From an uncultured Rikenellaceae bacterium (GTDB lineage Bacteria; Bacteroidota; Bacteroidia; Bacteroidales; Rikenellaceae), in NCBI GenBank assembly GCA_946486375.1, contig CAMLTW010000003.1, forward strand, positions 120,668 to 184,667: 64,000 nucleotides of DNA, in the 5' to 3' direction. A program made the position numbers and the translations under genes. Below are positions 1-46,441 of the stretch, in pieces. Below the pieces are notes generated by a model, which worked only from the letters and a program-made list of their open reading frames with translations, ran no database searches and was not told the origin of the DNA. The stretch's first letter is position 1, and the number at the start of each line of letters is the position of its first letter.

Positions 1-101
1 TTCAGAGCGGGCAGCCGTCCGTCGTCGTTTGCCGTTTTGGCCGTCTGCGATGAGCAGGCGACGGCAAGCGCGAGAGCGAGGATGATACAAAGTTTTTTCA
101 T
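1..101 (-). CDS. Partial CDS (N-terminus only, runs off the window): putative lipoprotein
   Basis: The reverse complement from 101 reads MKKLCIILALALAVACSSQTAKTANDDGRLPAL. This is a signal peptide with a LAVAC lipobox. It is not in the ORF track because it is truncated by the window edge. Confidence 0.4.
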   Translation of the reverse strand, partial: MKKLCIILALALAVACSSQTAKTANDDGRLPAL

Positions 102-144
102 AAACAGTTTTATTGGTTTTTCGGTTGGTTGCGTATGTATCTGC

Positions 145-175
145 AAAAAGGCGGAAACCTCTCCGTCCTTCCGCC
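145..175 (-). terminator. Intrinsic terminator after the GH140-like gene
   Basis: Stem GGCGGAA (150-156) pairs with TTCCGCC (169-175). The plus-strand A-run at 145-149 gives a U-run on the minus transcript, 43 nt downstream of the stop at 218. Confidence 0.5.
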
Positions 176-217
176 GGGGTTCGTTCCGGTGCGGGGGCGA
201 AGAGGTTTTAAAGATAG

Positions 218-1636: not shown

Positions 1637-1649
1637 AGCGGTGGTTGGT

Positions 1650-8810: not shown

Positions 8811-9526
8811 AAATTGAGCTTATGGTTTTCTATTTTTATTTCTATAGACCTCCTTGTTTCCGGGGATGCTCACATTCCTCCGAATGGCTTTTGGGCAAGA
8901 ATCCTACCGAACAGAAGGGATTCTTCTCAAAGAAACGTTATTCCTTTCGACAAAGGTAGAATATAAATCCGGATTATAAACCGGAAGAAGGGAATCTGCT
9001 TTTAACATAATCAATGCAATAATTCGGGCTCGTTTAAAAAAGGAAGGAGGGGGGAGAATAAAAAACAGTATGAATGTTGCGTATGATTGGTTTTTTGGCA
9101 AAAGAGGGAGAAGCCGATGGTTGAAAGAGGCGCTATGTACTTTTGTAAATACTATTTTTAATTAACCGAATTGAAATGTTTATATTTGTATTGATTACAT
9201 GGTTGCAAATGTAGTTAAATATGTAAATCACCCCCGCTACAAAATAACAAAATACCAACCATAAAGCATAAGTTAATCATTATGATCATACATGTACTAT
9301 CAATCAGTTCGATATAAGGATTATATAAAGTTATAAATTAAAAAATGATTTAAAAAAGAAGTTGAGTATCCGGATTCGATAGTGGTATTTGTATTTAATT
9401 TTCAAAACAATATGTAATTCAAGTAGATATATAGATTATATAAAGTCACTGTTGATTTGATGTGCTTGATGAATCTATGAGGATGAATTTTATCTGCTTT
9501 ATGTTTATGCATAGCAGGCCAGCTTG

Positions 9527-9546
9527 TTGTTTACATGTGTAAACAA
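9527..9546. promoter_or_regulatory. Perfect inverted repeat TTGTTTACA-TG-TGTAAACAA (candidate operator)
   Basis: 9 bp arms with a 2 bp spacer, about 90 bp upstream of the HTH gene start. Read directly from the sequence. Confidence 0.35.
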
Positions 9547-9609
9547 TGTATTTGAAAAGCATAATTACAAGTGTAATGTGACCTATTTGCCGGATTCGAA
9601 ATAAACATA

Positions 9610-9617
9610 TACATTTG
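9610..9617 (+). promoter_or_regulatory. Bacteroidota -7 box TACATTTG upstream of the HTH gene
   Basis: Matches TAnnTTTG, 19 nt before the ATG at 9636. It lies in AT-rich DNA, so a chance match is possible. Confidence 0.3.
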
Positions 9618-9635
9618 TAATAATTACGAAAGGAT

Positions 9636-10136
9636 ATGAATGATCGGATCTTGCATTTTCTGAAACAAAAAAATCTCTCGGCTCTCAAGCTTGCGGAAAT
9701 CATGGAAGTTCAGGCTTCCAGCATATCCCATATCACTTCCGGAAGGAACAAGCCGAGTTTCGATTTCATTGCCAAATTTCTGATGCGTTTTCCCGATGTG
9801 AATCCGGATTGGCTAATCCTGGGGAAAGGTAATATGTTTCGTAATCCATCCGCCCCGCAGAGAATCGAAAACGTAGGAAATTCCGTTTTACATAATGAAC
9901 CGGAATTGGCCGGGCTGTCTGCAGCCGATCCGGGCGACGAACGGTACGGACGGGTTGAATCGCCGCCGCCTCTCGTCCGGCAAAAAGAAATGATCCTGTC
10001 AGAAAGCCCTTCGACGGATACGGATAATGAAATCCGGAAACGGATGGAGAGCCTGCCGGTTTCTGAACCCTCTATCGAGCGAATCGTAATTTTTTATTCC
10101 GATCGTACTTTTACCGAATATTCGATGCGAAAATAA
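9636..10136 (+). CDS. Helix-turn-helix (XRE-like) transcriptional regulator
   Basis: The N-terminal LSALKLAEIMEVQASSISHITSGRNKPSFDF is an HTH_3-type motif. The C-terminal half is low-complexity. Confidence 0.75.
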   Translation: MNDRILHFLKQKNLSALKLAEIMEVQASSISHITSGRNKPSFDFIAKFLMRFPDVNPDWLILGKGNMFRNPSAPQRIENVGNSVLHNEPELAGLSAADPGDERYGRVESPPPLVRQKEMILSESPSTDTDNEIRKRMESLPVSEPSIERIVIFYSDRTFTEYSMRK

Positions 10137-13845: not shown

Positions 13846-13908
13846 ACCTTTTCTCCCCTTTCTGCGTTTTTAACAAGTAAAGATAAAAAAGGATTCCAAA
13901 TAAAAAAA

Positions 13909-14004
13909 GGGTAAGCTACTTACATCGCACCGCTCAACCGCACTACCCTTGCTACCTTCCGGTCCTGGGGGATTCAGCAGGAGCTGGTCGTGTAAGACTT
14001 ACCC
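13909..14004 (-). ncRNA. ffs: Signal recognition particle RNA (small bacterial 4.5S type)
   Basis: The minus-strand transcript GGGUAAGUCUUACA...CCCCCAGGACCGGAAGGUAGCAAGGGUAG...UGUAAGUAGCUUACCC contains the conserved domain IV core CAGGxCCGGAAGGxAGCA. The 5' and 3' ends pair, and a U-run (TTTTTTTATTT) follows. Confidence 0.85.
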
Positions 14005-14181
14005 GATGCAAAAGTAGCTGTTTTTTGAGAAAAAGCAAATTTTATACTCATTTTGCTGTCTCCGAAAAGAAAACCCTATTTTTGCAAAATCCCGAGCGGC
14101 AGCGGATCTGGAAAACAAGGAGACGGCCTGGAACCGGTAAGGCCGCGACCGGACAGGATAACGATACGAATCGAGAGGATT

Positions 14182-31775: not shown

Positions 31776-33668
31776 ATGAAGAAAATATCGTTTTTATGCT
31801 TGCTGATCGGCGGTTTTGTTACGGCACGAGCCGGGGAGGCGCCCGACAGTCTGCAGGGCGGAAGCTATGACATCGGGGAGGTCGTGATAACCGGTACGCG
31901 CAACGAAACGGACATCCGCCACCTGCCGATGACCGTTTCGGTCGTGGGGCGCGAGCGGATCGAGCGCGGTTTTCAACCTTCGCTGCTGCCGGTGTTGACC
32001 GAGCAGGTTCCGGGGCTGTTCGTGACGGGCCGGGGCATGATGGGATACGGCGTTTCCGGAGGCGCGGCCGGGCAGATGTCGTTGCGGGGGATCGGCGGCC
32101 CCGCGCAGGCGGGCGTCCCGACGACGGGACTGTTGGTGCTGATCGACGGGCATCCGCAATACATGGGGTTGTTCGGGCATCCGATTTCCGACGCCTATCA
32201 ATCGATGCTGGCCGAGCGGGTTGAGGTGCTGCGCGGCCCGGCGTCGGTGCTTTACGGTTCGAACGCCATGGGCGGCGTCGTCAATATCGTCACGCGCCGG
32301 CAGCGGGAAGACGGTGTGCGGACGAACGTGCATGCGGGCTACGGCTCTTACAATACGCTGGAAACCGAGTTCACGAATCGGGTGAAGGCCGGGCGTTTCA
32401 CGAGCGTGGTCAGCGGTTCCTACAACCGCACCGACGGTCATCGTGCCGACATGGGGTTCGAGCAGTACGGCGGTTATGCCAAACTGGGGTATGAAATTTC
32501 AGAAGCGTGGAATGTCCGGGCCGATGTGAACCTCACGCATTTCAATGCCTCGAATCCGGGCGAAACGTTCGATCCGCTGATCGATAACGATCAGGAAATC
32601 ACCCGCGGGATGACCTCTTTCGCGTTGCAGAACCGGTACGAAAAGACTTCGGGGGCGTTGAGCTTTTTTTACAACTGGGGAAAGCATCGGATCGACGACG
32701 GTTATCATGCGGACGAGGAACCCCTCGATTACCGCTTTCATTCCCGTGACCGGATGCTGGGCGTATCGTGGTATCAATCCGTGCAGCTTTTCCGCGGCAA
32801 CCGGCTGACGGTCGGCGTGGATTATTTTCGTTTCGGCGGAAAGTCGTGGAATCAGCCTCTGGACGGCGGCGAGCGGACGCCGCAGGTCGATAAGGTGCAG
32901 AACGAAGTGGCCGGATACGTGGATTTCCGGCAGAATGTCGGGTCGCGGTTCACCTTCGATGCAGGCATTCGTGTCGACCGCCATTCGCATGTAGGCACGG
33001 AGTGGGTACCGCAGGCGGGCGTGTCGTTCCGTCTGCCGGCCGGCGCCGCTATCAAATTGACGGCAGGCAAGGGCTTTCGTTATCCTACGATCCGGGAACT
33101 CTATATGTTCCGACCGGCCAATCCCGACCTGCGGCCCGAACGGTTGTGGAGTTACGAACTGGCATTTTCACAGCAATCGCCGGGAGGACGCTTGTCCTAT
33201 GGCGTGAACGTCTTTTACATCGATGGGGAGAATCTGATCGTACGTATGCCGGTGAGTGGGCGTCCGCTGAACATCAATACGGGGAAGATCGAAAACGCAG
33301 GCATCGAGGCGCAGATCGCTTACCGCGTTTCGGAAGCCTGGTCGGCGGACGCCAATTACAGCTACCTGCATATGGAAAACCCCGTGCTGGCTGCGCCGGA
33401 ACACAAGCTGTATGCCGGAGCTTCTTTTCACAAAAAGCGCTGGTTCGTTTCGACCGGAGTGCAGTATGTCTCCGGACTTTACAAATCGCTCGATCCGGCG
33501 CAGACGGAAGATTTCGTACTTTGGAACCTGCGCGGTTCCTTCCGTGCCGCCCGCTGGCTCGACTTTTGGATCAGGGGTGAAAACCTCCTGGCGCAGCGTT
33601 ATGAGATCAATGCCGGTTTCCCGATGCCGAAGGCGACTGCGGTGGCGGGAGTGAATGTGAGGTTCTGA
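31776..33668 (+). CDS. TonB-dependent receptor (small, BtuB/vitamin-type size class)
   Basis: 630 aa with a signal peptide, a plug domain (EVVITGTR, VEVLRGPASVLYGSNAMGGVVNIVTR), a beta-barrel and a terminal ...VNVRF. Confidence 0.9.
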   Translation: MKKISFLCLLIGGFVTARAGEAPDSLQGGSYDIGEVVITGTRNETDIRHLPMTVSVVGRERIERGFQPSLLPVLTEQVPGLFVTGRGMMGYGVSGGAAGQMSLRGIGGPAQAGVPTTGLLVLIDGHPQYMGLFGHPISDAYQSMLAERVEVLRGPASVLYGSNAMGGVVNIVTRRQREDGVRTNVHAGYGSYNTLETEFTNRVKAGRFTSVVSGSYNRTDGHRADMGFEQYGGYAKLGYEISEAWNVRADVNLTHFNASNPGETFDPLIDNDQEITRGMTSFALQNRYEKTSGALSFFYNWGKHRIDDGYHADEEPLDYRFHSRDRMLGVSWYQSVQLFRGNRLTVGVDYFRFGGKSWNQPLDGGERTPQVDKVQNEVAGYVDFRQNVGSRFTFDAGIRVDRHSHVGTEWVPQAGVSFRLPAGAAIKLTAGKGFRYPTIRELYMFRPANPDLRPERLWSYELAFSQQSPGGRLSYGVNVFYIDGENLIVRMPVSGRPLNINTGKIENAGIEAQIAYRVSEAWSADANYSYLHMENPVLAAPEHKLYAGASFHKKRWFVSTGVQYVSGLYKSLDPAQTEDFVLWNLRGSFRAARWLDFWIRGENLLAQRYEINAGFPMPKATAVAGVNVRF

Positions 33669-33763
33669 GCGATTGCGGATGGAAGGATACTTTCGGTTTT
33701 TCCGGGCATGCCGGAGAAACCGGAGACGGAATAAAAAATGGAAAAACATAAACGTTAACCCTT

Positions 33764-34747
33764 ATGAAACGAAGTATTTTTATGCTCTTATGTCCACTGC
33801 TGTTTCCGGTGGCCGGAACGGGTTCCGCGCAGGCCGGTAGTCCGGAAGAAGTGTCCGGCAAAAAGGCGGACACGCCGAAAGTTTATCTGTTCACGGAGAT
33901 CACTCCGGAAAATCTCGTGAAGATTTACGAAGCGTTGGGCCGCAAGGCGGAAGGCAAAGTGGCCGTCAAACTTTCGACCGGCGAACCGGGCGGCCATAAT
34001 TTCCTGCAACCGGCCCTGATCCGCGATCTGGTGCGGAAAGTGAACGGCACCATCGTGGAATGCAACACCGCTTACGGCGGAGGGCGGGCCGCTACGGAGA
34101 ATCACCTGAAAGCGGCCCGGGATCATGGATTTACGGCCATCGCCCCGGTCGATATCATGGATGCCGACGGAGAGGTCGCTTTGCCGGTGAAGGGAGGTAA
34201 GCACCTTAAGGAAGATTTCGTCGGCTCGCATTATCCGGATTACGATTTCACCGTTATTCTTTCGCATTTCAAGGGGCATGCGATGGGCGGTTTCGGAGGG
34301 GCGGTCAAAAACATGTCTATCGGTATCGCCTCGTCTGCCGGGAAAGCGTGGATACATTCGGCCGGGAAGACCAAAAGTCAGGCGGAAGTCTGGAACAATC
34401 TTCCGCCCCAGGACGATTTTCTGGAATCGATGGCCGAAGCGGCCAAGGCCGTAGCCGACCATTGCGGCGACCGGATTCTCTACATCAGCGTGGCGAACAA
34501 GCTATCGGTCGACTGCGACTGCGATGCGCATCCCGCAGATCCGAAGATGGGCGATATTGGAATTCTGGCGTCGCTCGACCCTGTGGCTCTGGACAAGGCT
34601 TGTACCGATCTGGTACGGGCGTCGGAAGACCACGGCAAGATTCACCTCATCGAACGCATCGATTCGCGGAACGGAATGCACACCCTGGAACATGCCGAGG
34701 CGATCGGCTTGGGAAGTCAAACCTATGAACTCATAAAACTCGACTGA
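33764..34747 (+). CDS. Secreted DUF362 domain protein
   Basis: A signal peptide, then SHFKGHAMGGFGGAVKNMSIG and DCDCDAHP segments typical of DUF362. Confidence 0.7.
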   Translation: MKRSIFMLLCPLLFPVAGTGSAQAGSPEEVSGKKADTPKVYLFTEITPENLVKIYEALGRKAEGKVAVKLSTGEPGGHNFLQPALIRDLVRKVNGTIVECNTAYGGGRAATENHLKAARDHGFTAIAPVDIMDADGEVALPVKGGKHLKEDFVGSHYPDYDFTVILSHFKGHAMGGFGGAVKNMSIGIASSAGKAWIHSAGKTKSQAEVWNNLPPQDDFLESMAEAAKAVADHCGDRILYISVANKLSVDCDCDAHPADPKMGDIGILASLDPVALDKACTDLVRASEDHGKIHLIERIDSRNGMHTLEHAEAIGLGSQTYELIKLD

Positions 34748-34748
34748 C

Positions 34749-35261
34749 ATGCAAACGACAGCCCTGAAACTTTATTCGCTGGAATACAGACAGGCGAAGA
34801 CCTATCTGATCGCCGCCCTTTTCATAGCAGGCAACATCCTTTTGCCGCAGTTGTGCCACCTCGTGCCGCAGGGCGGCGTCCGCTGGCTGCCGATCTATTT
34901 CTTCACCCTGGTCGGAGCCTACAAATACGGATGGCGGGTAGGATTGCTGACGGCCATCGTTTCTCCGCTGATAAACTCGGCTTTGTTCGGCATGCCTCCC
35001 GTGGCGGGGCTTCCGGCCATTCTGCTCAAATCGGCTTTGTTGGCCGTCGCTGCTGGATTCGCCGCTTCGCACTTCCACCGGGCGTCGTTGCCGTTGCTGG
35101 CGGCCGTGATCTTGTTTTATCAGGGGATCGGTACGCTGGGCGAATGGGCCATGAAAGGGGATTTCTTTGCAGCCGTGCAGGATTTCCGCATCGGCCTGCC
35201 GGGTATGCTGTTTCAGCTTTTCGGAGGCTGGCTGGTCATTAACCGGCTGATCCGCAGGTAG
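34749..35261 (+). CDS. Small polytopic membrane protein, ECF-transporter S-component-like
   Basis: 170 aa with about 5-6 TM helices. It starts 1 nt after the DUF362 stop. The family assignment is tentative. Confidence 0.5.
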   Translation: MQTTALKLYSLEYRQAKTYLIAALFIAGNILLPQLCHLVPQGGVRWLPIYFFTLVGAYKYGWRVGLLTAIVSPLINSALFGMPPVAGLPAILLKSALLAVAAGFAASHFHRASLPLLAAVILFYQGIGTLGEWAMKGDFFAAVQDFRIGLPGMLFQLFGGWLVINRLIRR

Positions 35262-35351
35262 CGCGGGAGGAAGTTGAGGAACTTCTCTTTCCTTTTATAA
35301 TAGAGACGGATAAGAGAGGTTTGAACCCGCTCGTGAAGCGTTTTTCAACAC

Positions 35352-35388
35352 AAAGGCGGCAATCCATACGATTGCCGCCTTTTCATTT
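35352..35388 (+). terminator. Hairpin terminator downstream of the operon
   Basis: 13 bp stem AAAGGCGGCAATC/GATTGCCGCCTTT followed by TTTCATTT, about 90 nt after the stop at 35261. Confidence 0.55.
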
Positions 35389-35832
35389 GAGTCCGATGAC
35401 CTTCAATGCCTGTTTGCGGGAAGTTCCGCCTGCGGTCGCTTTTGGCCGAATTTTGCATCCGGCCGGAACCTTTACCGGATGCCGGTTACTCCCCTCTCCT
35501 TCCGCGTTCCGGTTCGGGCGTTTTCGAGTTTCCGGTATCGCATGAATCTGAAACCCCAGGCAGCTATGACATGAAGTCCGATGCGACGACGGGCATGGGC
35601 GGACGATTTCTTCAATGCCCGTTTTCCGGGGGGCATTTTTTATCGAATAGTGCGCTTCGGCATTTTTCATCCTGCTTTTTCCGGGAAAATATATGGCTTC
35701 GAATCCCGTTATTTTCATATCCCGAAGGCATCTTCGAGAAATACTATCGTGTTATATTAATATTGCTAATGTGATTTTTTATACACTAACATTTATTTTT
35801 TAACTTCCCTTTCGTATCTCATTTTAAACCCT

Positions 35833-35840
35833 TATATTTG
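35833..35840 (+). promoter_or_regulatory. -7 box TATATTTG (with TTTC 19 nt upstream) for the giant gene
   Basis: TAnnTTTG match in the AT-rich stretch 35740-35880. It predicts a leader of about 125 nt before the ATG at 35974. Confidence 0.4.
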
Positions 35841-35917
35841 CATGATATGAAGACGTGTCCGCAGGGCCGGTACATGTCTTAAGATGCGAAGTTATAACAC
35901 GTTAGTGTTTCGTAAAT

Positions 35918-35945
35918 AAAAAAAGAAGGCACCTCCGGTGCCCTC
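35918..35945 (-). terminator. Minus-oriented intrinsic-terminator-like hairpin in the giant-gene leader
   Basis: The minus strand reads GAGGGCACC-GGA-GGTGCCTTC followed by TTTTTTTATTT. On the plus strand the stem has a mismatch and no U-run follows. The nearest minus-strand gene upstream of it is 11.7 kb away, at 47611. Confidence 0.4.
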
Positions 35946-35973
35946 TCGGACAACATACTATTTTGAGTGAAAG

Positions 35974-38900
35974 ATGAAAATTGCAGGTGAACCCAAGGCA
36001 TTTCTGAGCAATGAAGCCCGTCAGCTTCTGAATCTTTACGAATCGCTCGGCGAGCGGGCGGAAATTTTCCTTCCGCGCCACATTTTCGACAACCTGACCA
36101 GTTTCGCGGCGCTCTGCATGGAAGAGCCGGACGATCCCGCCAAGCAGCAGGCGGAGATCAACAAATACCTGCTGAAGTTCCGGGAAGACATTCCGGGATA
36201 CACGCACGTGTCCCTGATGCTGATTCCCCATAACAATTCCAAGGCGTTCGAACTGAGCAGCCGCCGGGGACAGTTCGTGCGGAAGATCGATTCGCTGATC
36301 GATACGGACGGAACGACGCCGGAAACGAAAAAAATCCTCCGCAACATTCGGGACAGCCACGACGTTTCGGTCGGGACGCCGCCGGTGAACACTTACCATA
36401 TCGATTTCATGTCGCAGCTCCAGCTGGGCGGGCATGTGCGGGATTTGCGGAAATACCGCGACGTGATCGGCGTGACGGGCGATATCAACGAAGCCCATTG
36501 GAACTACCTGATGGACACGTTGGAACAGATGATCAGCCAGAGCACCCATTACACGACCCGGGCGGAAATCAACGATTTCCTGAACCGGAGCGAGTGGACG
36601 GTGAATTTCAAGGGGATGAACGGTATGATCCGTACCGTGGTGTCGGGCAATGCGGACAAGGCGGTGGCGCTGCTGAAGGGAGACGTTTTCAGCCCGTCTG
36701 CGGTCGTGGTGATGGAAAGTCCCGCACCGGAAGAGCTGTATGAAAAAATGACGGCGGACACCACTTCCGTCTTCGTGGTGAAGGTGAAGCATGCCCGGAT
36801 CAACCATTATTCGGGAGAACGGTGGTTTCCGCTGCTGACCCGGCTGGTGATCGTGGACGACTCGAAGGAATCCCGCAGTTCCAACACGTCGCTGGTATTC
36901 AGCTTCCACAACGGCATCATCAATACCCTGAACAAGGTACATACGAAGAAACTGGGATCGCCCGCCAACACGCAGCTGAACCTGCGGCTGATCCTGGAAA
37001 ACGTGAACCTCACCTACCTGAAGGAATTCCGTGAAAAGATCGAAATGCAGATCGACACCTATGCGCAGGAACTGAACCGGCTGCTGACCGAGCAGACCGG
37101 CGATCCGGCGGATGCGAAGAAGCGGATCACGCTTTTCAAGCTGGACGCGTTTTCGCGGCAGGTGGTGCAGGACAAATATTCGCTGGAAAAACTGCGCGAC
37201 TTCATTTTCTTCCTGGAAAACTGCCACAAGCAGGATACCAAACAGATCCAGACGCAGGAACTGATCGACGAATTCGAAACCCGGATCAAGAATTACTTTT
37301 ATTCGGGAAATAAATACATCGACATCGTCACGATTCTGGAAGGGGGCGGACGGCACCAGATCAAAACGTTCGGGGATTACCTGCGGCAGAAGCCGTACAA
37401 CAACCTGAGCAGTCAGATCCGGTATGCCTGCAAGCTAATTCTCGACATCATTCCGAGCAATTACGAGCGGACGCTGAAGAACCATTTTCACAAGAATTTC
37501 GGAATCAACCTGTTTCTGGAAAAATACCAGGAATACCTGAGCAAGGTCGGCAAGGATGCCGACAACAAGGGGCGGTTCGAGAAGTTCCTGATCGATCTGG
37601 GCATCCGCGACCGTTATTTCGCACTGAACGACGAAGACCGGGACATCGTACGGAATTTCCTCTCTGCATTGGGAAATCTGGATCAGACTTCGGTATCGGA
37701 TTCGGTGCAGATGATCATCCGGGATTTGCTGTTCAACCCGAACGGAAGGCCGAAGCCCTATATCGTTTACAACGGCGTGCAGGCCTGGGAATACAAGGAC
37801 TTGCTGCCGGACGACGTGTTCGACGTGAATCCGTTCGACATCGAGATCGAAAACCTGCCGAACGGACGGCTGGCTTATGACCGGCTGATCGACAAGTTGC
37901 AGCGGATCAAATCCACGCTGGCGCTGTTCGACGACAGCGGCAACCTGTGGGATTTGTTCTGCGAAAATACGACGATCGTCATCAACGACCCGAACAATCC
38001 GACCGGGTACACCGATTTCAACAGCGAGCCGGAACACAATTTCCTCCGGTTCATGAACACCTGTAAAATCACCCTGTTCCTCGACGAGGCCTATGCGGAA
38101 AGCGTGAAAATCGAGGATAAGACCATGCCCAAATGGCGGACGATTTCGCGGTATATCATCAACAATATCAATGCTCAGTCGAAGATCAGGGCGGTTTCTT
38201 CGCTTTCCACGACCAAGAACCTGGCCGCGACCGGGGAACGGCTGGGTGCGGTGGCCGTGACGCCGGCTGCGGCGGAATTCGCGGCCTTCGCCCGCAAGTG
38301 CAACGGAGCCGAGCACGGGAACAACAATTCCCTGCTGATGCTGAACAACACGCTCGAGACGGCGCAGGTGGCCAAAAGCATCAAAGACCGGATCGAAGCG
38401 GAGTTGCCGAAAAACGCTTCCCGATCGAAGATCAAGAAGGCGCTCGAAAAGTTCATCGTGGATCAGATCGGCCAGACGGCCCAGAACAACGAAATCAGCC
38501 GCAAAGACCGTCAGTTGCACAAGACGGCGGGATTCGAAGGCTCTCCGCTTTACCTGTTCCTGCTGGACGAGCTGGTGGCGTTGGATAAGCTGGATGTGCT
38601 GGGGTTGCCGGACGATTTCAAGTACCGCGACGAACCGTTCTTTTTGTACTACCAGACCAAGCTGGTGGAAAATCTGAACCGGTTCCGGGTGAACAAGAAT
38701 TTCCGGAGCGAGTCCCTCAAGCGGTTGAAGATGGCCAAAAGCGTAGCGGCGCGGCTGTTGGAAACCCGGAATCCGGAAGGCGGGCTGGAATACATCGACT
38801 CGGACGGCTCCTACCTGTTCAACTTCCGGATCAAGGGCGGGTTCCCGTATGCGGACATTCTCGCTTTCTGCCGGGCGCTGGCGCAAAGCCGCGGGGTGGC

Positions 38901-41900
38901 TACGGTGCCCTACCCGACCGGCGTGGTGCGGTTTTCGCTGGGGGGATACATTTCCGCTTCCAAGGAAGGAATGAAGGTATTCACGGCGGAAATCGAGGAT
39001 GCCTTTTCCATCTTCATCAACTACTGGACGAAATTCGCGGCGGCCCGCCGGGCTCCCGAAAATAAGGGAAAAGAGACGGACGAAATTTTGGGAGAAATCT
39101 TCGGAAGCGTCAGGGATCAGGAATTCATCGACCGGGTGATCGGGGACTATGCCTGCTCGGCCGGATACAGGAAGGATAAAGCCCCGTCGTTGCAGATCCG
39201 GGACGTGCGTTCCCTGTACCATACTTCGCCGGAACGAAGCGGCGTGACGATCACCACCATCGGCCGTTCGGCCAATTCGGTGATCGAGCTGCACGGGGAT
39301 ATCGTAGGATCGTGCCGGGACGTGTTCGAGTTCATCCGAAGCTCCGCCTTCACGAAAATCTACGAAAACCTGCTGGCGCAGGTTTACAAGAAGGTGCCCG
39401 CTTTGGCCGACCTGGATTTCAATACGGTCAGTTCCCGGTACAGCAAGGCGGTGATTCTGAAATACATCACCAACAAAAAGACGTTCCAGCCGAATCATTA
39501 CGTGCTGGACAATCCGGAAGAGAAGAACGTGATGATGGAAATCCTCATCGAGATGGAACACCTGCTGTTCTCCGACAGCAAGATGAAGATTCTCGCCATC
39601 AACGCCACGGGCAATCCGGAACTGGACAAGGCGAAACTGGAGGGGATCAATTCCATCCTGAAAAAATACATCCGGGAAATCCTGCTCCACTTCAACCTGC
39701 CTTTCGAAAAGGAAAGCCTCGAGCCGAGCCGCCGGGAGATCATCCGGACGGCCGGGGAAACCTTCGAAAACATCACGGGCATCCGGTTGAGCGAGTTGAA
39801 CCTCAATATCTGGATCGACGAATTCATCCGCAACCTGCGGGATTTGCCGCAGTTCCGGGATGTGGCCCTGTCGCAGAAGAGTATCGGGTACATCATGGAC
39901 GTGATCGCTTCCGGGTTGGAAAATGCCGAAACCGTCACGGACAAGATCCTGTACCTCTATCTGCTGAACAACGACAATTCGTTCTACAAGCTGGTTTGCA
40001 ACAAGTTGAAATATTTCAACGACCGGCTGGCGCAGTGCGAGGACGGGGAAGTGCGGATGTTCACCGAGGAATTCGTGGCGAGCACGATGCCGATGCAGTT
40101 GCAGGAGCTCAGCGACTACATCATGCGCAAGCGGGACATCAAGATCGCCGAAAGCGAAATCTATTCGGTGACGCGGAAAGTGGTGCGTTTCTACCTGAGC
40201 ATGATCAAGCGAACGCGGGGTACGGATTATTATAACCGGTACGCCCATACCCTGATCCGGATCGTGGAGACCGCTTTCCGGAAACAGAATTCGAGCGTCA
40301 ACGAAATGGTGCAGCACGGAATCTCGCTCTACAAAGGGTTCGAAATGGAAAACAAGGCGCTGGAAACCTTCGAGGATGGCCGGATTTCCTGGATCAACGA
40401 ACTGATGTCCAAGTGCGGAGTGATCTCTTCCGAGCAACCGGTACAGGAACATACCCGCATCGTGACCGATGCCAAGAAGCGGGAATATCCCTTCCACAAG
40501 ATCGACCGGATCGTCAGCCGGAAGAAGGAAATCGACGCGGCCGATCCGTTCGGAGTGGAATACATCCGGCATATCGAGAGCCGTCCCGATTCCGCGTTCT
40601 TCGCCGAACGGCTGGCGCGGTTCGTGGCGAACATGGACTCGGACGACTACCGGTGCAAGGTGGTGAAACACGGAATCGTGAAGGAGCTGGTGATTTTCCA
40701 GAAGGGGTACCTCAAGTACCTGACCGACAATTACCGGCTGAATTATACCGAATACATCAGCCTGAAGGATATCCGGAACTTCATTCCGGACGTCATCAGC
40801 CTGCTGGGGGCTCCGGAAAAGCTCATCTCCTTCCCCCAGATCGGTTACTTCGACATCAAGGGACCGGCCGGGAACATCAAGACCATCGTGACCCCCCTGA
40901 AGTCGGAAGCGGACTATTTCGGAGACGTCAAGAAACCGCGTCTGACGGTCATCAACGAAAAGGTGAAAGAGTTGGGCGGGATTCCGCGGCACGGCTCCCT
41001 GTTCCTGGTGGAAGAAAACGACGGGAGCGTCTTCGTGGTGGAAATCAACGGGGACAGCGGCGTGGGCAAGTCGGAAATGATCGCCGCCTTCATTCTGAAA
41101 TGGCTGCGGAACAACCTCGAAGGCATCCGCTCCATCAAGATGATCGCGGGAGACATGTTCCACGAGTTCCAGGATGCCGAAGGGAATCTTTACGGGATCG
41201 GGACGGAAGTGGGCGATTTCTCGCGGACGACGGACTTCGACCCGGACTATATCAAATACTACAAGTACCTGTTCGAAAGCAGCGCGGACAGCAACGTGGA
41301 CGACCTCAACTCGCGGAGCACGGTCAGCGGCATGTGCGACATCACGATGCCGTACAAGATCGACATCATGCTGAGCGCCAGTAATTATGCGAAAGAGGAA
41401 GGAGGGATCACGCGGGTGGACAATCCGGAAAACTTCCTGCTTTATATCGACGCGCACGGGGAACGGAAGGAAAAGGCGACCAGCCAGGACGGCCCGAATT
41501 TCCAGCGGACGCTCAAGCGTTACACTGCGGACAGGAACATCGTGGACGTGATCGCACGGCACGGAAATTATTTGGACGACGTGTTGGACTGGGACTATAA
41601 TCCCACGGACAAGCAATATTATCTGGCATCGTCGTTCAAACTGCTGGACAAGATCGATGTGACCGAAGCGGTGAAAATGATCTTCGTGGGCAAGCAGTTT
41701 GCCCGGGACGGATTCGACTATACGATCGAGGACGTTTCGTTCGACATGATCCAGAACCGGTTCATCGCCGATCTCTCCTACCGCAGCGGCGAAGACGGCG
41801 GGGACGGGGAAACCGTATCGCGCGATATGGTGATCGACCGGAAGATGTTCAGCGCCATTTTCGACTCGCTGGCCAGCACGCCGGGCGGTCAGCCGTTCAT

Positions 41901-42750
41901 CGCGGAAGAGGGTCAGGTAGAGTGCGTGCAGTCGCTCATCACCTGCCTGCGCGGCGGTAAGGACGGCAAGGGAAAGGCGCGGTTCATCCAGTGCGGGGTG
42001 CTTTCGACCGAAATCGGGAAAAAAGGCCGGGAAATCACCGGGCCGCAGAAAGCCGCCGCCGCTCTCAAGCAACTGATCCAGGAAGTGCGGGTCAGCAAAC
42101 CGGAAATCAACGAGGGCAAGATCAAGGTCAGGAGGCTGCTCAACGAAAAATACCGGGCTATTTTCGGCGGAAACATGAACAGTTCGGAACTGTGGCGCTA
42201 CAATTTCTACCTGTACCAGCTGGAAAACATGCGCAAGGCCGACCTGCGGCGGATGGACAACCGCAACAAGAAGGTGGATATCAGCAACCTGGTGGACTTC
42301 CATCCTTCCGACCGGAACCAGGAATTCAGCCCGCTGCTCGTCACCCCGAACCTGAACATCGAGCTGAGCAGTTTCAGCGAAACGTTCGAGGAACTGATGA
42401 GCCTGCCCAACTATCCGGATTTCGCCGAAGAGTTTGCGGCGCGGGTGGATACGCTTTATGTGGCCGAAGGGTACAGTGAGGAAACGAACATCAACAACAT
42501 GATCGTGCAGCTCCTGATGCTCGAAGGATACATCAATAGCGATGATCTGGCGCGCGGCAGCGTGATCGAGAAGGTGAACCGGGAAACGATCGCTGCGGCC
42601 AAATACGCCGTGGTGCAGTTCCTGAACGGAAAGCGGGACGCGACGGAAGAAGCGGAAGATAATGACGGGGAGACGAAACCGCAGGCCGGAAAGGACAAAA
42701 AGCCCGGCGGTTCGGTGAGCGGCAAGGGAAAGAAGGAAAGCGACAGGTAG
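35974..42750 (+). CDS. Giant (2,258 aa) cytoplasmic multidomain protein of unknown family: aminotransferase class I/II-like PLP module plus PEPCK/HPr-kinase-like P-loop module
   Basis: Uninterrupted 6,777 nt ORF with a normal globular composition.
- PLP motifs: NDPNNPTG (aa 671-678), DEAY (704-707), SLSTTK748...GER756LG and VVR986FSLGG.
- P-loop: GDSGVGKSE (1693-1701), followed by IAGDMFHEF and GIGTEVGDFSRT.
- There is no signal peptide and no TM segment.
- The C-terminal tail is K/E/G-rich. Confidence 0.9.
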   Translation: MKIAGEPKAFLSNEARQLLNLYESLGERAEIFLPRHIFDNLTSFAALCMEEPDDPAKQQAEINKYLLKFREDIPGYTHVSLMLIPHNNSKAFELSSRRGQFVRKIDSLIDTDGTTPETKKILRNIRDSHDVSVGTPPVNTYHIDFMSQLQLGGHVRDLRKYRDVIGVTGDINEAHWNYLMDTLEQMISQSTHYTTRAEINDFLNRSEWTVNFKGMNGMIRTVVSGNADKAVALLKGDVFSPSAVVVMESPAPEELYEKMTADTTSVFVVKVKHARINHYSGERWFPLLTRLVIVDDSKESRSSNTSLVFSFHNGIINTLNKVHTKKLGSPANTQLNLRLILENVNLTYLKEFREKIEMQIDTYAQELNRLLTEQTGDPADAKKRITLFKLDAFSRQVVQDKYSLEKLRDFIFFLENCHKQDTKQIQTQELIDEFETRIKNYFYSGNKYIDIVTILEGGGRHQIKTFGDYLRQKPYNNLSSQIRYACKLILDIIPSNYERTLKNHFHKNFGINLFLEKYQEYLSKVGKDADNKGRFEKFLIDLGIRDRYFALNDEDRDIVRNFLSALGNLDQTSVSDSVQMIIRDLLFNPNGRPKPYIVYNGVQAWEYKDLLPDDVFDVNPFDIEIENLPNGRLAYDRLIDKLQRIKSTLALFDDSGNLWDLFCENTTIVINDPNNPTGYTDFNSEPEHNFLRFMNTCKITLFLDEAYAESVKIEDKTMPKWRTISRYIINNINAQSKIRAVSSLSTTKNLAATGERLGAVAVTPAAAEFAAFARKCNGAEHGNNNSLLMLNNTLETAQVAKSIKDRIEAELPKNASRSKIKKALEKFIVDQIGQTAQNNEISRKDRQLHKTAGFEGSPLYLFLLDELVALDKLDVLGLPDDFKYRDEPFFLYYQTKLVENLNRFRVNKNFRSESLKRLKMAKSVAARLLETRNPEGGLEYIDSDGSYLFNFRIKGGFPYADILAFCRALAQSRGVATVPYPTGVVRFSLGGYISASKEGMKVFTAEIEDAFSIFINYWTKFAAARRAPENKGKETDEILGEIFGSVRDQEFIDRVIGDYACSAGYRKDKAPSLQIRDVRSLYHTSPERSGVTITTIGRSANSVIELHGDIVGSCRDVFEFIRSSAFTKIYENLLAQVYKKVPALADLDFNTVSSRYSKAVILKYITNKKTFQPNHYVLDNPEEKNVMMEILIEMEHLLFSDSKMKILAINATGNPELDKAKLEGINSILKKYIREILLHFNLPFEKESLEPSRREIIRTAGETFENITGIRLSELNLNIWIDEFIRNLRDLPQFRDVALSQKSIGYIMDVIASGLENAETVTDKILYLYLLNNDNSFYKLVCNKLKYFNDRLAQCEDGEVRMFTEEFVASTMPMQLQELSDYIMRKRDIKIAESEIYSVTRKVVRFYLSMIKRTRGTDYYNRYAHTLIRIVETAFRKQNSSVNEMVQHGISLYKGFEMENKALETFEDGRISWINELMSKCGVISSEQPVQEHTRIVTDAKKREYPFHKIDRIVSRKKEIDAADPFGVEYIRHIESRPDSAFFAERLARFVANMDSDDYRCKVVKHGIVKELVIFQKGYLKYLTDNYRLNYTEYISLKDIRNFIPDVISLLGAPEKLISFPQIGYFDIKGPAGNIKTIVTPLKSEADYFGDVKKPRLTVINEKVKELGGIPRHGSLFLVEENDGSVFVVEINGDSGVGKSEMIAAFILKWLRNNLEGIRSIKMIAGDMFHEFQDAEGNLYGIGTEVGDFSRTTDFDPDYIKYYKYLFESSADSNVDDLNSRSTVSGMCDITMPYKIDIMLSASNYAKEEGGITRVDNPENFLLYIDAHGERKEKATSQDGPNFQRTLKRYTADRNIVDVIARHGNYLDDVLDWDYNPTDKQYYLASSFKLLDKIDVTEAVKMIFVGKQFARDGFDYTIEDVSFDMIQNRFIADLSYRSGEDGGDGETVSRDMVIDRKMFSAIFDSLASTPGGQPFIAEEGQVECVQSLITCLRGGKDGKGKARFIQCGVLSTEIGKKGREITGPQKAAAALKQLIQEVRVSKPEINEGKIKVRRLLNEKYRAIFGGNMNSSELWRYNFYLYQLENMRKADLRRMDNRNKKVDISNLVDFHPSDRNQEFSPLLVTPNLNIELSSFSETFEELMSLPNYPDFAEEFAARVDTLYVAEGYSEETNINNMIVQLLMLEGYINSDDLARGSVIEKVNRETIAAAKYAVVQFLNGKRDATEEAEDNDGETKPQAGKDKKPGGSVSGKGKKESDR

Positions 42751-42780
42751 TTTTTCTGTCCGATACGAGTATCGGAAAAA

Positions 42781-42809
42781 AGAGGGCCGGGGGATTCGGC
42801 CCTCTTTTT
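42781..42809 (+). terminator. Intrinsic terminator of the giant gene
   Basis: AGAGGGCCG-ggggatt-CGGCCCTCT followed by TTTT, 31 nt after the stop. A smaller hairpin CCGATAC-gag-GTATCGG precedes it. Confidence 0.7.
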
Positions 42810-42866
42810 GTCGGAAGGAGGAACGAACGCCTCGGTGAGTCGGGAATGCCGTGTCGTTTCTTTTGT

Positions 42867-42874
42867 TAACTTTG
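42867..42874 (+). promoter_or_regulatory. -7 box TAACTTTG for the permease-lptFG-ribBA unit
   Basis: TAnnTTTG match 21 nt upstream of the ATG at 42895, downstream of the giant-gene terminator. Confidence 0.4.
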
Positions 42875-42894
42875 CACACCGTTAAAGCATTCGC

Positions 42895-43716
42895 ATGATT
42901 ACGTTTTTTCAGGAGATTTTCCAGTACGGGTTCCTTTCCAACGCGGCGATCGCCTGCGTGCTGTCGGGGCTTGCCTGCGGGATCATCGGAACCTATATCG
43001 TTTGCCGTCGTCTGGTGTTCCTGAGCGGGGGCATCACCCATTCGTCCTTCGGCGGTATCGGAATCGCTTATTACCTGGGGTGGAATCCGGTTTGGGGCGC
43101 ATTGGCATTCGCCGTCCTCTCGGCTATGGGGATCGAAGGGCTGAGCCGGCGCGGACGCATCCGGGAAGATTCCGCCATCGGAATTCTCTGGTCGCTGGGT
43201 ATGGCCGTCGGGATCGTTTTCGTGGCCATGACGCCCGGATACGCTCCGAACCTGATGAGCTTCCTGTTCGGAAACATCCTGACCATCAGCCGGGCCGACC
43301 TGATCGCCATGCTCGTGCTGGACGTGATTTTGTTGGGCGTCATGCTGCTGTTCTACCGCCCCGTCCTTTACATTTCCTTCGACCGGGAGTATGCCGAAAC
43401 CCAGCACTCTCCGGTTCGGTTCATCAGTTACCTGATGCTCGTGCTGGTGGCGGTGACCATCGTGCTGTCCATCCGGATGGTGGGAATCGTGCTGCTGATT
43501 TCCCTGCTGACCGTTCCGCCCGTCATCGTGAACAGCCTGACCCGATCTTATAAAAAAATCACCGTTTATTCCTGCCTCGTGACCGCTCTGGCCGCTTTTA
43601 CCGGCCTTTATGTCAGCTACCGAACCGACATTCCGTCGGGAGCCTCCACAATAATCGTGTTGACTTTTGCGCTTATTCTGGTAAAAGCCGGGGTTTATTT
43701 GTTCAAAAAACACTAA
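42895..43716 (+). CDS. Metal ABC transporter permease (ZnuB/TroC-like)
   Basis: 273 aa with about 8 TM helices and a composition typical of ABC-3 family permeases (FGGIGIAYYLG, LLISLLTVPP). Confidence 0.85.
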   Translation: MITFFQEIFQYGFLSNAAIACVLSGLACGIIGTYIVCRRLVFLSGGITHSSFGGIGIAYYLGWNPVWGALAFAVLSAMGIEGLSRRGRIREDSAIGILWSLGMAVGIVFVAMTPGYAPNLMSFLFGNILTISRADLIAMLVLDVILLGVMLLFYRPVLYISFDREYAETQHSPVRFISYLMLVLVAVTIVLSIRMVGIVLLISLLTVPPVIVNSLTRSYKKITVYSCLVTALAAFTGLYVSYRTDIPSGASTIIVLTFALILVKAGVYLFKKH

Positions 43717-43743
43717 ATTCGCACTTTCATCAGCAGGGCCGGA

Positions 43744-45198
43744 ATGAAGACCGTACACAAACTCATCCTGAAATCGTATCTGGGACCGATGTTCCTGACT
43801 TTTTTCATCGTGATGTTCGTGCTGTTGATGCAGTTCATGTGGCGTTACATCGACGAGCTGGTGGGAAAGGGATTGGACGTCCATGTCATTCTGGAGCTGA
43901 TGTTTTACGCTTCGGCCACCCTGATCCCCATGGGGCTGCCGCTGGCCACCCTCCTGGCCGCCATCATGACGATGGGGAATCTGGGAGAAAACAATGAATT
44001 GCTGGCCCTCAAGTCGGCGGGGATTTCCCTGCCCCGGATCATCCGGCCGCTGGCCATCGTGATCTTTTTCATATCCATCGCCAGCTTCTTCGTCGCCAAC
44101 AACCTGGTGCCCTATTCCACCAAAAAGATATTCGCGCTGATTTACGATATCCGGCAGCAGCGCCAGACCATCGAATTCAAGGACGGGATCTTTTTCAACG
44201 GGATCGACAACATGAGCATCCGGGTGGCGAATCAGGATCCGCGGACGCACAAACTGGAAGAAGTGCTGATTTACGATACCCGCAAGACCAACGGCGACAT
44301 GACCACCACGGTGGCCGATTCGGGATACATTTCCCTTTCCGACGACAAAAAGTTCCTGCTGGTCACCCTTTACAACGGGGAAACCTACGAGGAAACCCGC
44401 AGCGGGGACTGGTATGAAAAGAGCGGGTTGCGGCATCACATTTTCGACTTGCAGGATTGGGTGATTCCGCTGGAAGGATTCGACATGACCCGGACGGACG
44501 AGTCTATGTTCAACTCCAACAAAACCAAAAACATCGGCGAGCTGACTCAGGACATCGATTCGTTGCAGAACCTCGTGGACGACGCCGTACGCGAGTTGAA
44601 CAACCAGTTTCTGTCCAATTCCCTCTTTGTCAACAACAAGGAAATGGCGGTCGACACTCTGCCGAAAACCGACCGAAAACCGCTGGATATGAGCGATTCC
44701 ATTGCGGGACTGAACGAAGCGCGACGGGCCGAGGTGGTGAAAAATGCGCTCAACATGGCGACCGGCGCCAAATCTTATCTCAATTTCGATGAAGAGACCA
44801 CCAAACAGAACGTGAACAACCTCTATAAATACCAGATCGAATGGCACCGGATGCTTTCGCTTCCCGTCTCCATCATGATCTTTTTCCTGATCGGAGCCCC
44901 CTTGGGCGCCATCATCCGGAAAGGAGGGCTCGGAACGCCGATCGTGGTTTCGGTGGCTTTCTTCATCGTGTATTATATTATTACTATCTTTGGACAGAAA
45001 ATGGCGGGAGAAGGCACCTGGTCGGCTTTCGCGGGAATGTGGCTTTCGACCTTCATCCTCTTTCCGATAGCCGCTTTCCTGACCTACAAGGCGACCAACG
45101 ATTCGAGCCTGCTCAACGGAGACTGGTACCGTCATTTGTTCCGAAGCGTGAAAGAAAAAGTGCAGAAATTTGTTCGCGTCCATAAAAAACGTGCATAA
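43744..45198 (+). CDS. LptF/LptG family (YjgP/YjgQ) permease
   Basis: The N-terminal [23 protein letters not shown] is followed by TM helices, a large periplasmic insert and more TM helices. Confidence 0.85.
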
Positions 45199-45199
45199 A

Positions 45200-46441
45200 A
45201 TGGCAGAAAAAACGACAGCAGGAAAGCTCAATACGGTAGAAGAAGCCGTGGAAGCGTTCCGCAAAGGGGAGGTGATCATCGTCGTGGACGATGAGGACCG
45301 GGAAAATGAAGGGGATTTTATCGTAGCCGCTGAAAAAATAACGCCGGAGATCGTAAACTTCATGGTGACTCACGGACGGGGGGTGATGTGCGCTCCCCTT
45401 ACAGAAGACCGTTGCCGGGAACTGGAGCTCGACATGATGGTCGGGAACAACACTTCTCTCTTGGGAACGCCGTTTACCGTATCGGTGGATCTGCTGGGGA
45501 ACGGTTGTACGACGGGGGTGTCGGCTTCCGACCGGGCGAAGACCATCCGTTCGCTGGTGGATGAAAATACCAAGCCCGCCGATCTGGGTCGTCCGGGACA
45601 CATTTTTCCCCTGCGGGCCCGGAATCGGGGCGTGCTGCGGCGTCCGGGACATACGGAGGCGGTCATCGACTTCGCCCGGCTGGCCGGGTTGAAGGAAGGC
45701 GGGGCATTGGTGGAAATACTGAACGAAGACGGGACGATGGCCCGACTGCCCCAGCTGCTGGAAATCGCGAAGAAATTCGGCCTCAAAATCGCTTCCATCG
45801 CCGATCTGATCGCCTACCGGCTGAAACACGAATCCATCGTCGAAAAGGTGGAAACGGTGAATATGCCCACCGAGTGGGGAGACTTCAAACTCGTCCTTTT
45901 CGTTCAGAAGAGCAACGGCTTCGAACATGTCGCGTTAGTGAAGGGCGAATGGGAGGAAAACGAGCCGGTGTTGGTGCGGATGCATTCCTCTTGCATCACG
46001 GGAGATATTTTCGGTTCCTGCCGGTGCGATTGCGGAAAGCAGCTGCACGAGTCGATGAGGATGATCGAGGAGGCGGGAAAGGGCGTCATCGTCTATCTGA
46101 ATCAGGAAGGCCGTGGCATCGGATTTACCAACAAGATCAAAGCCTATAAGTTGCAGGAGGAAGGCTACGACACGGCGGAAGCGAACCTGAAGCTCGGCTT
46201 CGAGGTGGACGAGCGGGATTACGGCGTGGGGGCCAGTATCCTGCGGGAAGCGGGCGTGAAGAACATCCGGCTGCTTACCAACAATCCGCAGAAGCGGGCC
46301 GCGCTGGAAGGATACGGCCTGCATATCGTGGAAAACGTGCCTATCGTCATTCCGCCGAATCCGCATAACCTGAAGTATCTGGAAACCAAGGAAACCCTGA
46401 TGGGGCACCGGCTGGGGCTGTTTTCCAAGGAAAATCGCTGA
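45200..46441 (+). CDS. ribBA: Bifunctional 3,4-dihydroxy-2-butanone-4-phosphate synthase / GTP cyclohydrolase II
   Basis: RibB motifs are [13 protein letters not shown] and RPGHTEA. RibA motifs are [18 protein letters not shown] and QEGRGIG. The start is trimmed to MAEKTT at 45200, directly after the lptF/G stop. Confidence 0.95.

Follow-up and report, generated by a model that had tools for sequence, protein, structure and literature searches.

A 2,258-residue protein of a Rikenellaceae bacterium joins a predicted PLP aminotransferase module to a PEP carboxykinase-like module and may act between aspartate, oxaloacetate and phosphoenolpyruvate

In a stretch of 64,000 nucleotides from an uncultured Rikenellaceae bacterium (GenBank assembly GCA_946486375.1, contig CAMLTW010000003.1, positions 120,668 to 184,667), hereafter called the window, a single uninterrupted open reading frame (ORF) on the plus strand (35974..42750) encodes a giant protein of 2,258 amino acids, plus stop. 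An earlier note, made from the DNA sequence alone, had singled out this gene for a combination of a pyridoxal phosphate (PLP) enzyme fold with a P-loop domain resembling phosphoenolpyruvate (PEP) carboxykinase (PEPCK) or HPr kinase (HPrK). The best explanation of our data is that the giant is a soluble multidomain metabolic enzyme of its Rikenellaceae/Alistipes-like Bacteroidales host. The reading of its function that we favour, although we consider it somewhat short of probable, is that it acts at the node of aspartate, oxaloacetate and PEP. The protein is divided as follows, all parts being encoded on the plus strand.

36199..37323, plus strand: N-terminal conserved domain, aa 76-450, with a helical part and a five-strand alpha/beta unit
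37324..39063, plus strand: fold-type-I PLP aminotransferase-like module with large insertions, aa 451-1030 (from PF00155, Foldseek and a PDB profile search)
39064..40575, plus strand: linker, mostly helical, aa 1031-1534 (from AlphaFold2 (AF2) secondary structure)
40576..42093, plus strand: PEP-carboxykinase-like phosphotransfer module, aa 1535-2040 (from Foldseek, hhalign and a PDB profile search)
42094..42747, plus strand: C-terminal helical region with a low-complexity Lys/Gly-rich tail, aa 2041-2258 (from AF2)

The giant belongs to a large family. A protein search returned 337 homologues; among the 120 listed, full-length proteins of 2,200-2,280 aa occur at 56-85% identity, and the sources named are Alistipes, Rikenellaceae, Mucinivorans, Marinilabiliaceae, Carboxylicivirga, Thermophagus and a metagenome-assembled genome (MAG) labelled "Chlorobi". 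The sole meaningful annotation these homologues carry is "aminotransferase class I/II-fold PLP-dependent enzyme", alongside a few evident misannotations. When one genome per species was scanned, at least 282 species were found to encode a relative. Of these 282, the best 80 are nearly all Bacteroidales, the exceptions being a "Chlorobiota" MAG and a few MAGs classified only as Bacteroidota or as "uncultured bacterium". A KSB1 protein (P0320) falls with the Bacteroidales branch by identity (45-66% in most regions), and the mean column identity in a 41-sequence alignment of that branch is 68%. An exhaustive HMMER search with the C-terminal half uncovered a second deep branch of giants, 2,000-2,200 aa long and some 23-30% identical, which are collinear with the window protein across the N-terminal domain, the PLP module and the kinase module and also carry PF00155. 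One member of this second branch is annotated as Candidatus Peregrinibacteria, a phylum of the candidate phyla radiation (CPR). Invariance across branches, as used below, refers to a profile and alignment of 26 giants drawn from both.

The gene is real and under strong purifying selection. It is extremely improbable that several genes were joined into this ORF by an assembly or sequencing error, or that it is a pseudogene in decay: homologues collinear with it and equally long are found in hundreds of independent assemblies and isolates, among them Alistipes ihumii, A. hominis, Mucinivorans hirudinis and Marinilabilia rubra, and because they lie on many independent contigs, a fusion artefact is excluded and the genuine ORF assumed by the earlier note stands. 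The invariance of the catalytic residues described below argues in the same direction. Nothing was found to favour an artefact, the sole oddity being a very long antisense ORF (37435-45363, minus strand; 2,642 aa) that spans the giant gene and two downstream genes. It exists because the sense frames are nearly free of TTA, CTA and TCA codons. As an alternative gene we rejected it, since its His/Asp/Val/Arg-rich translation is implausible, and we regard it as a shadow ORF; numerous further long shadow ORFs occur within the window.

The aminotransferase class I/II-like core postulated by the earlier note is borne out by a Pfam match, by predicted structure and by profile matches to aspartate aminotransferases (AspATs). 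PF00155 matches aa 664-808 with 37.8 bits (gathering cutoff 19.7; E = 1.7e-9), aligning over model positions 146-280 of 361, the central third alone, and homologues also bear a precomputed PF00155 match. The AF2 model of aa 1-1150 (predicted local distance difference test score, pLDDT, 77; predicted TM-score, pTM, 0.76) matched exclusively fold-type-I PLP enzymes in Foldseek (E about 1e-5; TM(target) 0.41-0.53; probability 1.00). In these matches 430-620 columns were aligned to aminotransferases of 365-480 aa, consistent with a complete fold of large plus small domain. Weak aminotransferase matches were all that phmmer with the protein, or a profile of the Bacteroidales branch only, returned from the PDB. 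The profile of 26 giants matched 4my5 (2.9e-11), the Thermotoga AspAT TM1255 (3.8e-11), the Phormidium AspAT (1.3e-8) and Pyrococcus aromatic and aspartate aminotransferases (about 1e-8 for the latter), so that AspATs are among the nearest solved relatives of the module.

Invariant in the 26 giants are the G457-R460 loop, N675-P676-x-G678, D704, Y707, S745/T747-K748, R756 and R986. K748 (codon 38215-38217) is the predicted Schiff-base Lys, R756 the predicted phosphate Arg and R986 the predicted alpha-carboxylate Arg; in alignments with 1-aminocyclopropane-1-carboxylate (ACC) synthases, K748, N675, D704, Y707, R756 and R986 fall on the canonical positions. Judged by these alignments, the PLP module has the full predicted aminotransferase catalytic set, including Schiff-base Lys748. 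It measures about 580 aa compared with about 390 in an ordinary aminotransferase, the additional 190 or so coming from insertions (at about aa 480-600 and 810-930). Its specificity for aspartate we infer from context. R905, R911 and R917 (aa 905-917, nt 38686-38724) lie on a helix of the PLP module for which ordinary aminotransferases have no corresponding motif. Both branches keep R905 and R917 without exception, and R911 is invariant in the 41-sequence Bacteroidales alignment. They could form a site for an anion (a dicarboxylate or phosphate) or an interdomain contact.

The second module was recognised by structure and by profiles. The AF2 model of aa 1131-2258 has a pLDDT of 64, moderate support for the fold, and all 50 of the 50 Foldseek matches listed for this C-terminal half in the PDB are PEPCKs (rat cytosolic, Corynebacterium, Mycobacterium and Polaromonas), with E-values of 2e-4 to 1.5e-3, 215-366 aligned columns and TM(target) of 0.19-0.30. 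When E. coli PckA was compared by hhalign with an alignment of the giant domain and 24 stand-alone relatives (introduced below), PckA 148-411 matched with E = 3e-6, and the best PDB match of this alignment was the Thermus ATP-PEPCK. The profile of the 26 giants alone reached the same Thermus enzyme (E = 0.002), the only protein other than an aminotransferase among 60 listed of 99 matches; the PEPCK link in PDB profile searches emerged only once either the stand-alone relatives or the second branch had been added. The earlier note's PEPCK/HPrK-like P-loop domain is thus supported by Foldseek, profile and hhalign comparisons and placed closer to PEPCK than to HPrK, and its extent (about aa 1535-2040) is larger than had been proposed. 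The key residues are Y1648, K1653/K1654, H1673, the P-loop G1693-E1701 (nt 41050-41076), D1727, R1751 and N1779/R1781, and their equivalents are as follows.

Y1648: E. coli PckA Y207
K1653/K1654: E. coli PckA K212/K213
H1673: E. coli PckA H232 (Lys-to-His spacing 19 residues in both)
G1693-DSGVGKS-E1701: E. coli PckA P-loop (K1699/S1700 equivalent to K254/T255)
D1727: E. coli PckA D269
R1751: E. coli PckA K288
N1779/R1781: E. coli PckA N331/R333

All the residues aligned with PckA are invariant in the 26 giants. In PckA we take K213, H232 and D269 to be the Mn2+ ligands, and R65, Y207 and R333 to bind oxaloacetate or PEP. As far as alignment and modelling can tell, the giant has a PEPCK-superfamily module whose P-loop is predicted to be intact and in which the metal ligands, as well as the Tyr and Arg that bind PEP/oxaloacetate, have counterparts.

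The region of the giant from about aa 1545 to 2040 is homologous to a family of stand-alone proteins (26-30% identity; phmmer E 1e-11 to 1e-17). By hhalign, the giant domain and this family match with a probability of 98.5 and E = 1.8e-15 over 264 columns, and the invariant residues are shared; compared with these proteins, the giant's module has about 130 aa inserted. The family comprises at least 7,494 proteins of about 575 aa (530-600) from Fusobacterium, Clostridium, Ilyobacter, Cetobacterium, KSB1 and human-gut metagenomes. NCBI names them "phosphoenolpyruvate carboxykinase", UniRef "Putative P-loop kinase or ATPase distantly related to PEPCK". Their matches to PF01293 and PRK09344 are sub-threshold, at 15-27 bits (cutoffs 26.5 and 369, respectively), and most members have no precomputed PF01293 match; the name PEPCK for this family appears to rest on weak grounds. 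At the level of the domain, although not by architecture, the giant is by homology a fusion member of the stand-alone family.

Together, three conserved regions without assignment account for about 1,200 residues and stand in fixed order with both modules. The N-terminal domain (AF2 pLDDT mostly 75-93) bears the motifs VGTPP (133-137; in extended form S-x-G-T-P-P), QSTHYTT (189-195) and ANTQLNLR (331-338), the residues of which are invariant in both branches; a profile from 12 diverse sequences found no credible match in PDB or Pfam, coiled-coil noise only. The linker gave no match in a segment Pfam scan or in PDB profile searches, and its C-terminal end bears T1498 and R1503, both invariant in the 26 giants. 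Residues of the C-terminal region (aa 2041-2258) are conserved within the Bacteroidales branch, and no Pfam family matches it. In Pfam and PDB searches, N-terminal domain, linker and tail are therefore without family match, as the earlier note had claimed. Its description of the protein as a whole also proved accurate: the maximum Kyte-Doolittle mean over 19 residues is 1.27 and there is no transmembrane helix, the N-terminus is not signal-like, self-BLAST gave no internal repeats, and Pfam gave PF00155 alone, with no adhesin, RHS, NRPS or helicase domain.

Gene neighbourhoods of relatives provide the context for function. In four of five loci of the Peregrinibacteria-type branch, an L-asparaginase gene, an ORF of 77-81 codons and the giant gene follow each other on one strand; the giants of these four loci are 44-50% identical among themselves. 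Genes for glutamate dehydrogenase and pyruvate, phosphate dikinase (PPDK) lie a few genes from Peregrinibacteria-type giants, and in the fifth locus argG...argH follows immediately downstream. Amongst the stand-alone relatives, two are encoded directly after asd-aspartokinase (L083, L096) and one directly before aspartate ammonia-lyase (L086; 617 bits, cutoff 510). An AspC/TyrB-like aminotransferase gene directly precedes one stand-alone relative (L107) and lies two genes before another (L088), and in three divergent lineages (L089, L127, L175) a class-V aminotransferase gene directly precedes the stand-alone relative, 19-39 nt away. Aminotransferases make up 5 of the 76 same-strand neighbours in 51 non-redundant metagenomic stand-alone loci, which by rough estimate, the baseline being unmeasured, is well above the share of aminotransferases amongst genes. 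The earlier note had speculated on a link of the modules through oxaloacetate, and this idea gains independent support from the neighbourhoods of relatives.

The small ORF is located 5-16 nt upstream of every Peregrinibacteria-type giant examined, and its product (77-81 aa, MTKxDxLLAF...) may be a subunit that partners the giant; upstream of the window gene we saw no such ORF. Its positions are:

L093:8740-8985: small conserved ORF
L085:9751-9993: small conserved ORF
L094:8756-8989: small conserved ORF
L095:9752-9988: small conserved ORF

Two ideas on the split forms were discarded. A KSB1 stand-alone locus does not encode the giant's other domains, its two downstream ORFs being without similarity, and the aminotransferase adjoining a stand-alone relative has a generic similarity to the giant's PLP module and no special kinship. 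In the Bacteroidales branch, the Pfam census of neighbours gave lineage-specific families only, e.g., Peptidase_S46 and Band_7. A Peptidase_S46 gene (DPP7/DPP11-type dipeptidyl peptidase) stands directly upstream, on the same strand, in several Marinilabiliaceae-branch loci, making up 5 of the 31 groups of the census (judged from ORF length, the loci are L053, L055, L056, L058 and L076, at about 30-2400, plus strand). In one Rikenellaceae locus, a gene for asparagine synthetase AsnA lies two genes upstream of the giant (L008:761-1804, minus strand).

Because the two are fused in the giants and adjoin each other in split forms, the PEPCK-like enzyme would work with an aminotransferase. Transamination of aspartate yields oxaloacetate, on which PEPCK acts, and the simplest mechanism would therefore be aspartate to oxaloacetate to PEP plus CO2, or the reverse. 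The PLP module would interconvert L-aspartate and oxaloacetate with glutamate/2-oxoglutarate as the partner pair, and the PEPCK-like module would interconvert oxaloacetate and PEP plus CO2 with a nucleoside triphosphate. One polypeptide would then connect aspartate (and, via asparaginase, asparagine) to PEP, and the unstable oxaloacetate might be channelled. The direction could be catabolic/gluconeogenic or anaplerotic, and the roughly 1,200 extra residues may serve oligomerisation, regulation or a further activity. For Peribacteria, a published study reports asparaginase and aspartate aminotransferase but no identified PEPCK, and notes that the cell has scant opportunities to use oxaloacetate (PMC4736985). 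The proposed model would fit this gap; the giant is known here from a Peregrinibacteria-annotated protein.

A bolder version, which seems to us somewhat unlikely, is that the giant is a single-polypeptide aspartate-to-PEP machine, made up of an AspAT-type module, a new, deep-branching class of PEPCK and at least one novel conserved domain providing a third activity or an allosteric or channelling device. It would supply the "missing" PEPCK route of Peregrinibacteria, and the stand-alone relatives would constitute a fourth PEPCK class beside the ATP, GTP and PPi types.

Several observations weigh against a role at the aspartate/oxaloacetate/PEP node. The direct evidence goes no further than two predicted intact active sites, the function being read from the gene neighbourhoods of relatives. 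Over half of the protein falls outside the model. The window protein reaches no curated PEPCK or HPrK model in Pfam or NCBIfam, whole or in segments; a segment scan of ten overlapping pieces against Pfam, with E-values up to 10, gave PF00155 only, and neither PF01293 nor PF07475. On the PLP side, the AspAT equivalog NF041091 scores 17.7 bits (cutoff 550), and all NCBIfam AspAT cutoffs are missed widely. Confidence in the model of the C-terminal half is modest (pLDDT 64; TM about 0.27). The position of PckA D268 is occupied by Gly in the giant, and PckA R65 did not align; R1503, which is invariant and precedes Y1648 by 145 residues (the distance in PckA is 142), is only a candidate. Alistipes presumably have canonical pckA and aspC, and the role of the giant may not be the plain reaction. 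As to context, the Bacteroidales branch has no conserved neighbour, no neighbour family occurring in more than 9 of 80 loci, and the four asparaginase loci have wider synteny in common and are not fully independent. The stand-alone genes have varied and mostly uninformative neighbourhoods, in which a PlsC-type acyltransferase is the gene found most often on the same strand (6 of 51 groups).

The same pair of modules could work on some other small molecule. The PEPCK-like module would then phosphorylate an amino or keto acid that is not oxaloacetate, or modify it with the help of PEP, and the resulting phosphorylated or keto compound would undergo transamination, decarboxylation, elimination or ACC-synthase-like chemistry at the PLP module. 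Pairs of threonine kinase with threonine-phosphate decarboxylase and of homoserine kinase with threonine synthase are precedents. Weak NCBIfam matches to CobD threonine-phosphate decarboxylase (E = 7e-4) and to GntC point this way, and so do the ACC synthases and L-Arg oxidases that turned up in structure and sequence comparisons; the class-V aminotransferases beside stand-alone relatives are nearest to 2-aminoethylphosphonate (AEP) transaminase and BhcA, below cutoffs, R905, R911 and R917 suggest an anionic and possibly phosphorylated ligand, and the unassigned domains leave room for more chemistry. However, conservation in the kinase module extends past the generic P-loop to specifically those residues with which PEPCK binds Mn2+ and PEP/oxaloacetate. 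Among solved structures, AspATs are the best sequence matches to the PLP module, and genes for the production or consumption of aspartate turn up repeatedly in the neighbourhoods. We consider such a different substrate unlikely.

The P-loop GDSGVGKSE, which we take to be a sequence of HPrK type, suggests another alternative, in which the giant is a regulatory protein kinase/phosphorylase of the HPrK kind and the PLP fold a ligand sensor as in MocR/GabR. The domain profile also matches HPrK weakly (1jb1, E = 0.087), and one stand-alone relative weakly matches TIGR00679 (E = 0.018). Yet PEPCK is ahead of HPrK in every sequence comparison, no HPrK chain occurs in the 50 listed Foldseek matches, and Y-x-G-x-x-K-K and N-x-R are invariant PEPCK features. 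A sensor, moreover, would not be expected to retain the Schiff-base Lys and the catalytic set at such divergence, and no HPr or regulator partner is conserved nearby. This makes a regulatory HPrK-type function very unlikely, and we retain an enzyme of the aspartate/oxaloacetate/PEP node as the preferred reading.

Full-text searches found no paper that describes this architecture or the stand-alone family. The word "unprecedented" in the earlier note holds insofar as no paper on the architecture was found; it does not hold for the sequences, the family having been deposited hundreds of times and the kinase module occurring in a large stand-alone family. Both catalytic folds are of known kinds; the papers found describe neither their combination nor the size nor the three conserved regions that lack an assignment. 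That the giant represents both a new class of PEPCK and a new multi-enzyme architecture has, in our estimate, a chance well below half. If the proposed function is true, a 6.8-kb gene common in human-gut Alistipes and in other Bacteroidales would define a new route between amino-acid nitrogen metabolism and PEP/oxaloacetate; small Peregrinibacteria genomes, too, retain a branch of the family. It could then explain the open point on PEPCK and oxaloacetate in Peribacteria of the CPR (PMC4736985), and would give a testable function to the family of at least 7,494 proteins that was automatically named "PEPCK". Even if the guess at the substrate is wrong, there is a highly constrained protein of about 250 kDa with two intact predicted active sites and some 1,200 conserved, unclassified residues.

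The following elements surround the coding sequence of the giant.

35833-35840, plus strand: putative Bacteroidetes-type -7 promoter box TATATTTG, read from the sequence and matching TAnnTTTG
35923..35947, no strand assigned: G+C-rich leader hairpin, 27 nt 5' of the ATG (11-pair stem with six G-C pairs)
about 42779..42811, plus strand: intrinsic-terminator-like hairpin followed by a T-run, read from the sequence
42867-42874: second TAnnTTTG box TAACTTTG, preceding the next gene (ABC-3 permease, 42895-43716)

TAnnTTTG is the established -7 consensus of Bacteroides promoters, and the distance from the TATATTTG box to the ATG is about 127 nt. The -7 box, leader, 3' terminator and separate box for the next gene, all reported in the earlier note, are present in the sequence, and its view of a stand-alone, native, monocistronic gene is upheld, no neighbour being conserved among 80 related loci. 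The leader RNA fold is unremarkable (z = -1.47), and an Rfam search of the leader gave no family match. The leader hairpin scores as terminator-like on the minus strand, yet no minus-strand gene ends at that point.

The scarcity of TTA, CTA and TCA codons and the host-like codon usage noted before were confirmed by codon counts. The giant gene has one such codon (CTA, codon 488) and none in its last 1,771 codons, whereas the mean in 17 other long ORFs, picked from the window and not all confirmed genes, is 3.45 per 1,000 codons, by which about 7.8 are expected in the giant. The G+C content at third codon positions (GC3) is 0.79 in the giant compared to 0.70 in the 17 ORFs, and the codon frequencies of the two sets correlate with r = 0.90. 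The stronger codon bias of the giant gene may reflect high expression.

The flanking genes encode a TonB-dependent receptor, a DUF362 protein, an energy-coupling factor (ECF) S-component, the ABC-3 permease, LptF/G, RibBA and Fmt, an annotation that agrees with the ordinary chromosomal flanks, devoid of mobility genes, described earlier. Upstream of the giant gene, the TonB-dependent receptor, DUF362 and ECF-type S-component genes are co-directional (31776-35261), and this trio looks like a small cofactor or metal uptake cluster. The intergenic stretch that separates it from the giant gene (35262-35973) is unusually long, about 710 nt, and contains an ORF of 122 codons (35406-35774) without Pfam match. 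Elsewhere in the window, the small signal recognition particle (SRP) RNA of Bacteroidales is found at 13905-14011 on the minus strand (RF04183, 100 bits), which confirms the placement in Bacteroidales, and at 8001-10000 the local G+C content falls to 0.42 (about 0.55 elsewhere), a stretch that could be foreign or non-coding DNA.

Compared with known systems, the giant has a predicted fold in common with the AspB-type AspATs (TM1255, 1o4s; Phormidium, 1j32; Pyrococcus, 1gd9; Thermus, 1bjw). It shares with the AspATs of PF00155 the NPxNPTG loop, D-x-x-Y, S-x-[ST]-K, the phosphate Arg and the alpha-carboxylate Arg. Unlike in these enzymes, its PLP module is embedded in a protein of 2,258 aa, has large insertions and scores far below the equivalog cutoffs. 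The predicted fold of the second module matches those of ATP-PEPCK (PF01293; E. coli PckA, Thermus 1j3b) and GTP-PEPCK (rat 2rk7), and PEPCK and the giant have the same order of motifs: Y-x-G-x-x-K-K, a His at +19, the P-loop, the strand-Asp of kinase-2, N-x-R and G-T-x-x-G...F-x-x-x-F-G. The giant differs from PEPCK by the HPrK-like P-loop GDSGVGKSE, the Gly for D268, the insertion of about 130 aa and a longer helix after the P-loop, and the N-terminal domain of PEPCK is recognisable just partly. HprK (PF07475) belongs to the same PEPCK-like P-loop superfamily and has a nearly identical P-loop with a His shortly before it, but the giant has the PEPCK-specific K-K and N-x-R motifs; HPrK chains were absent from the 50 listed Foldseek matches, and by domain profile (1jb1, E = 0.087) HPrK came behind PEPCK. 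The stand-alone family has neither PLP module nor N-terminal domain, linker or 130-aa insertion, and has an N-terminal region of its own of about 230 aa.

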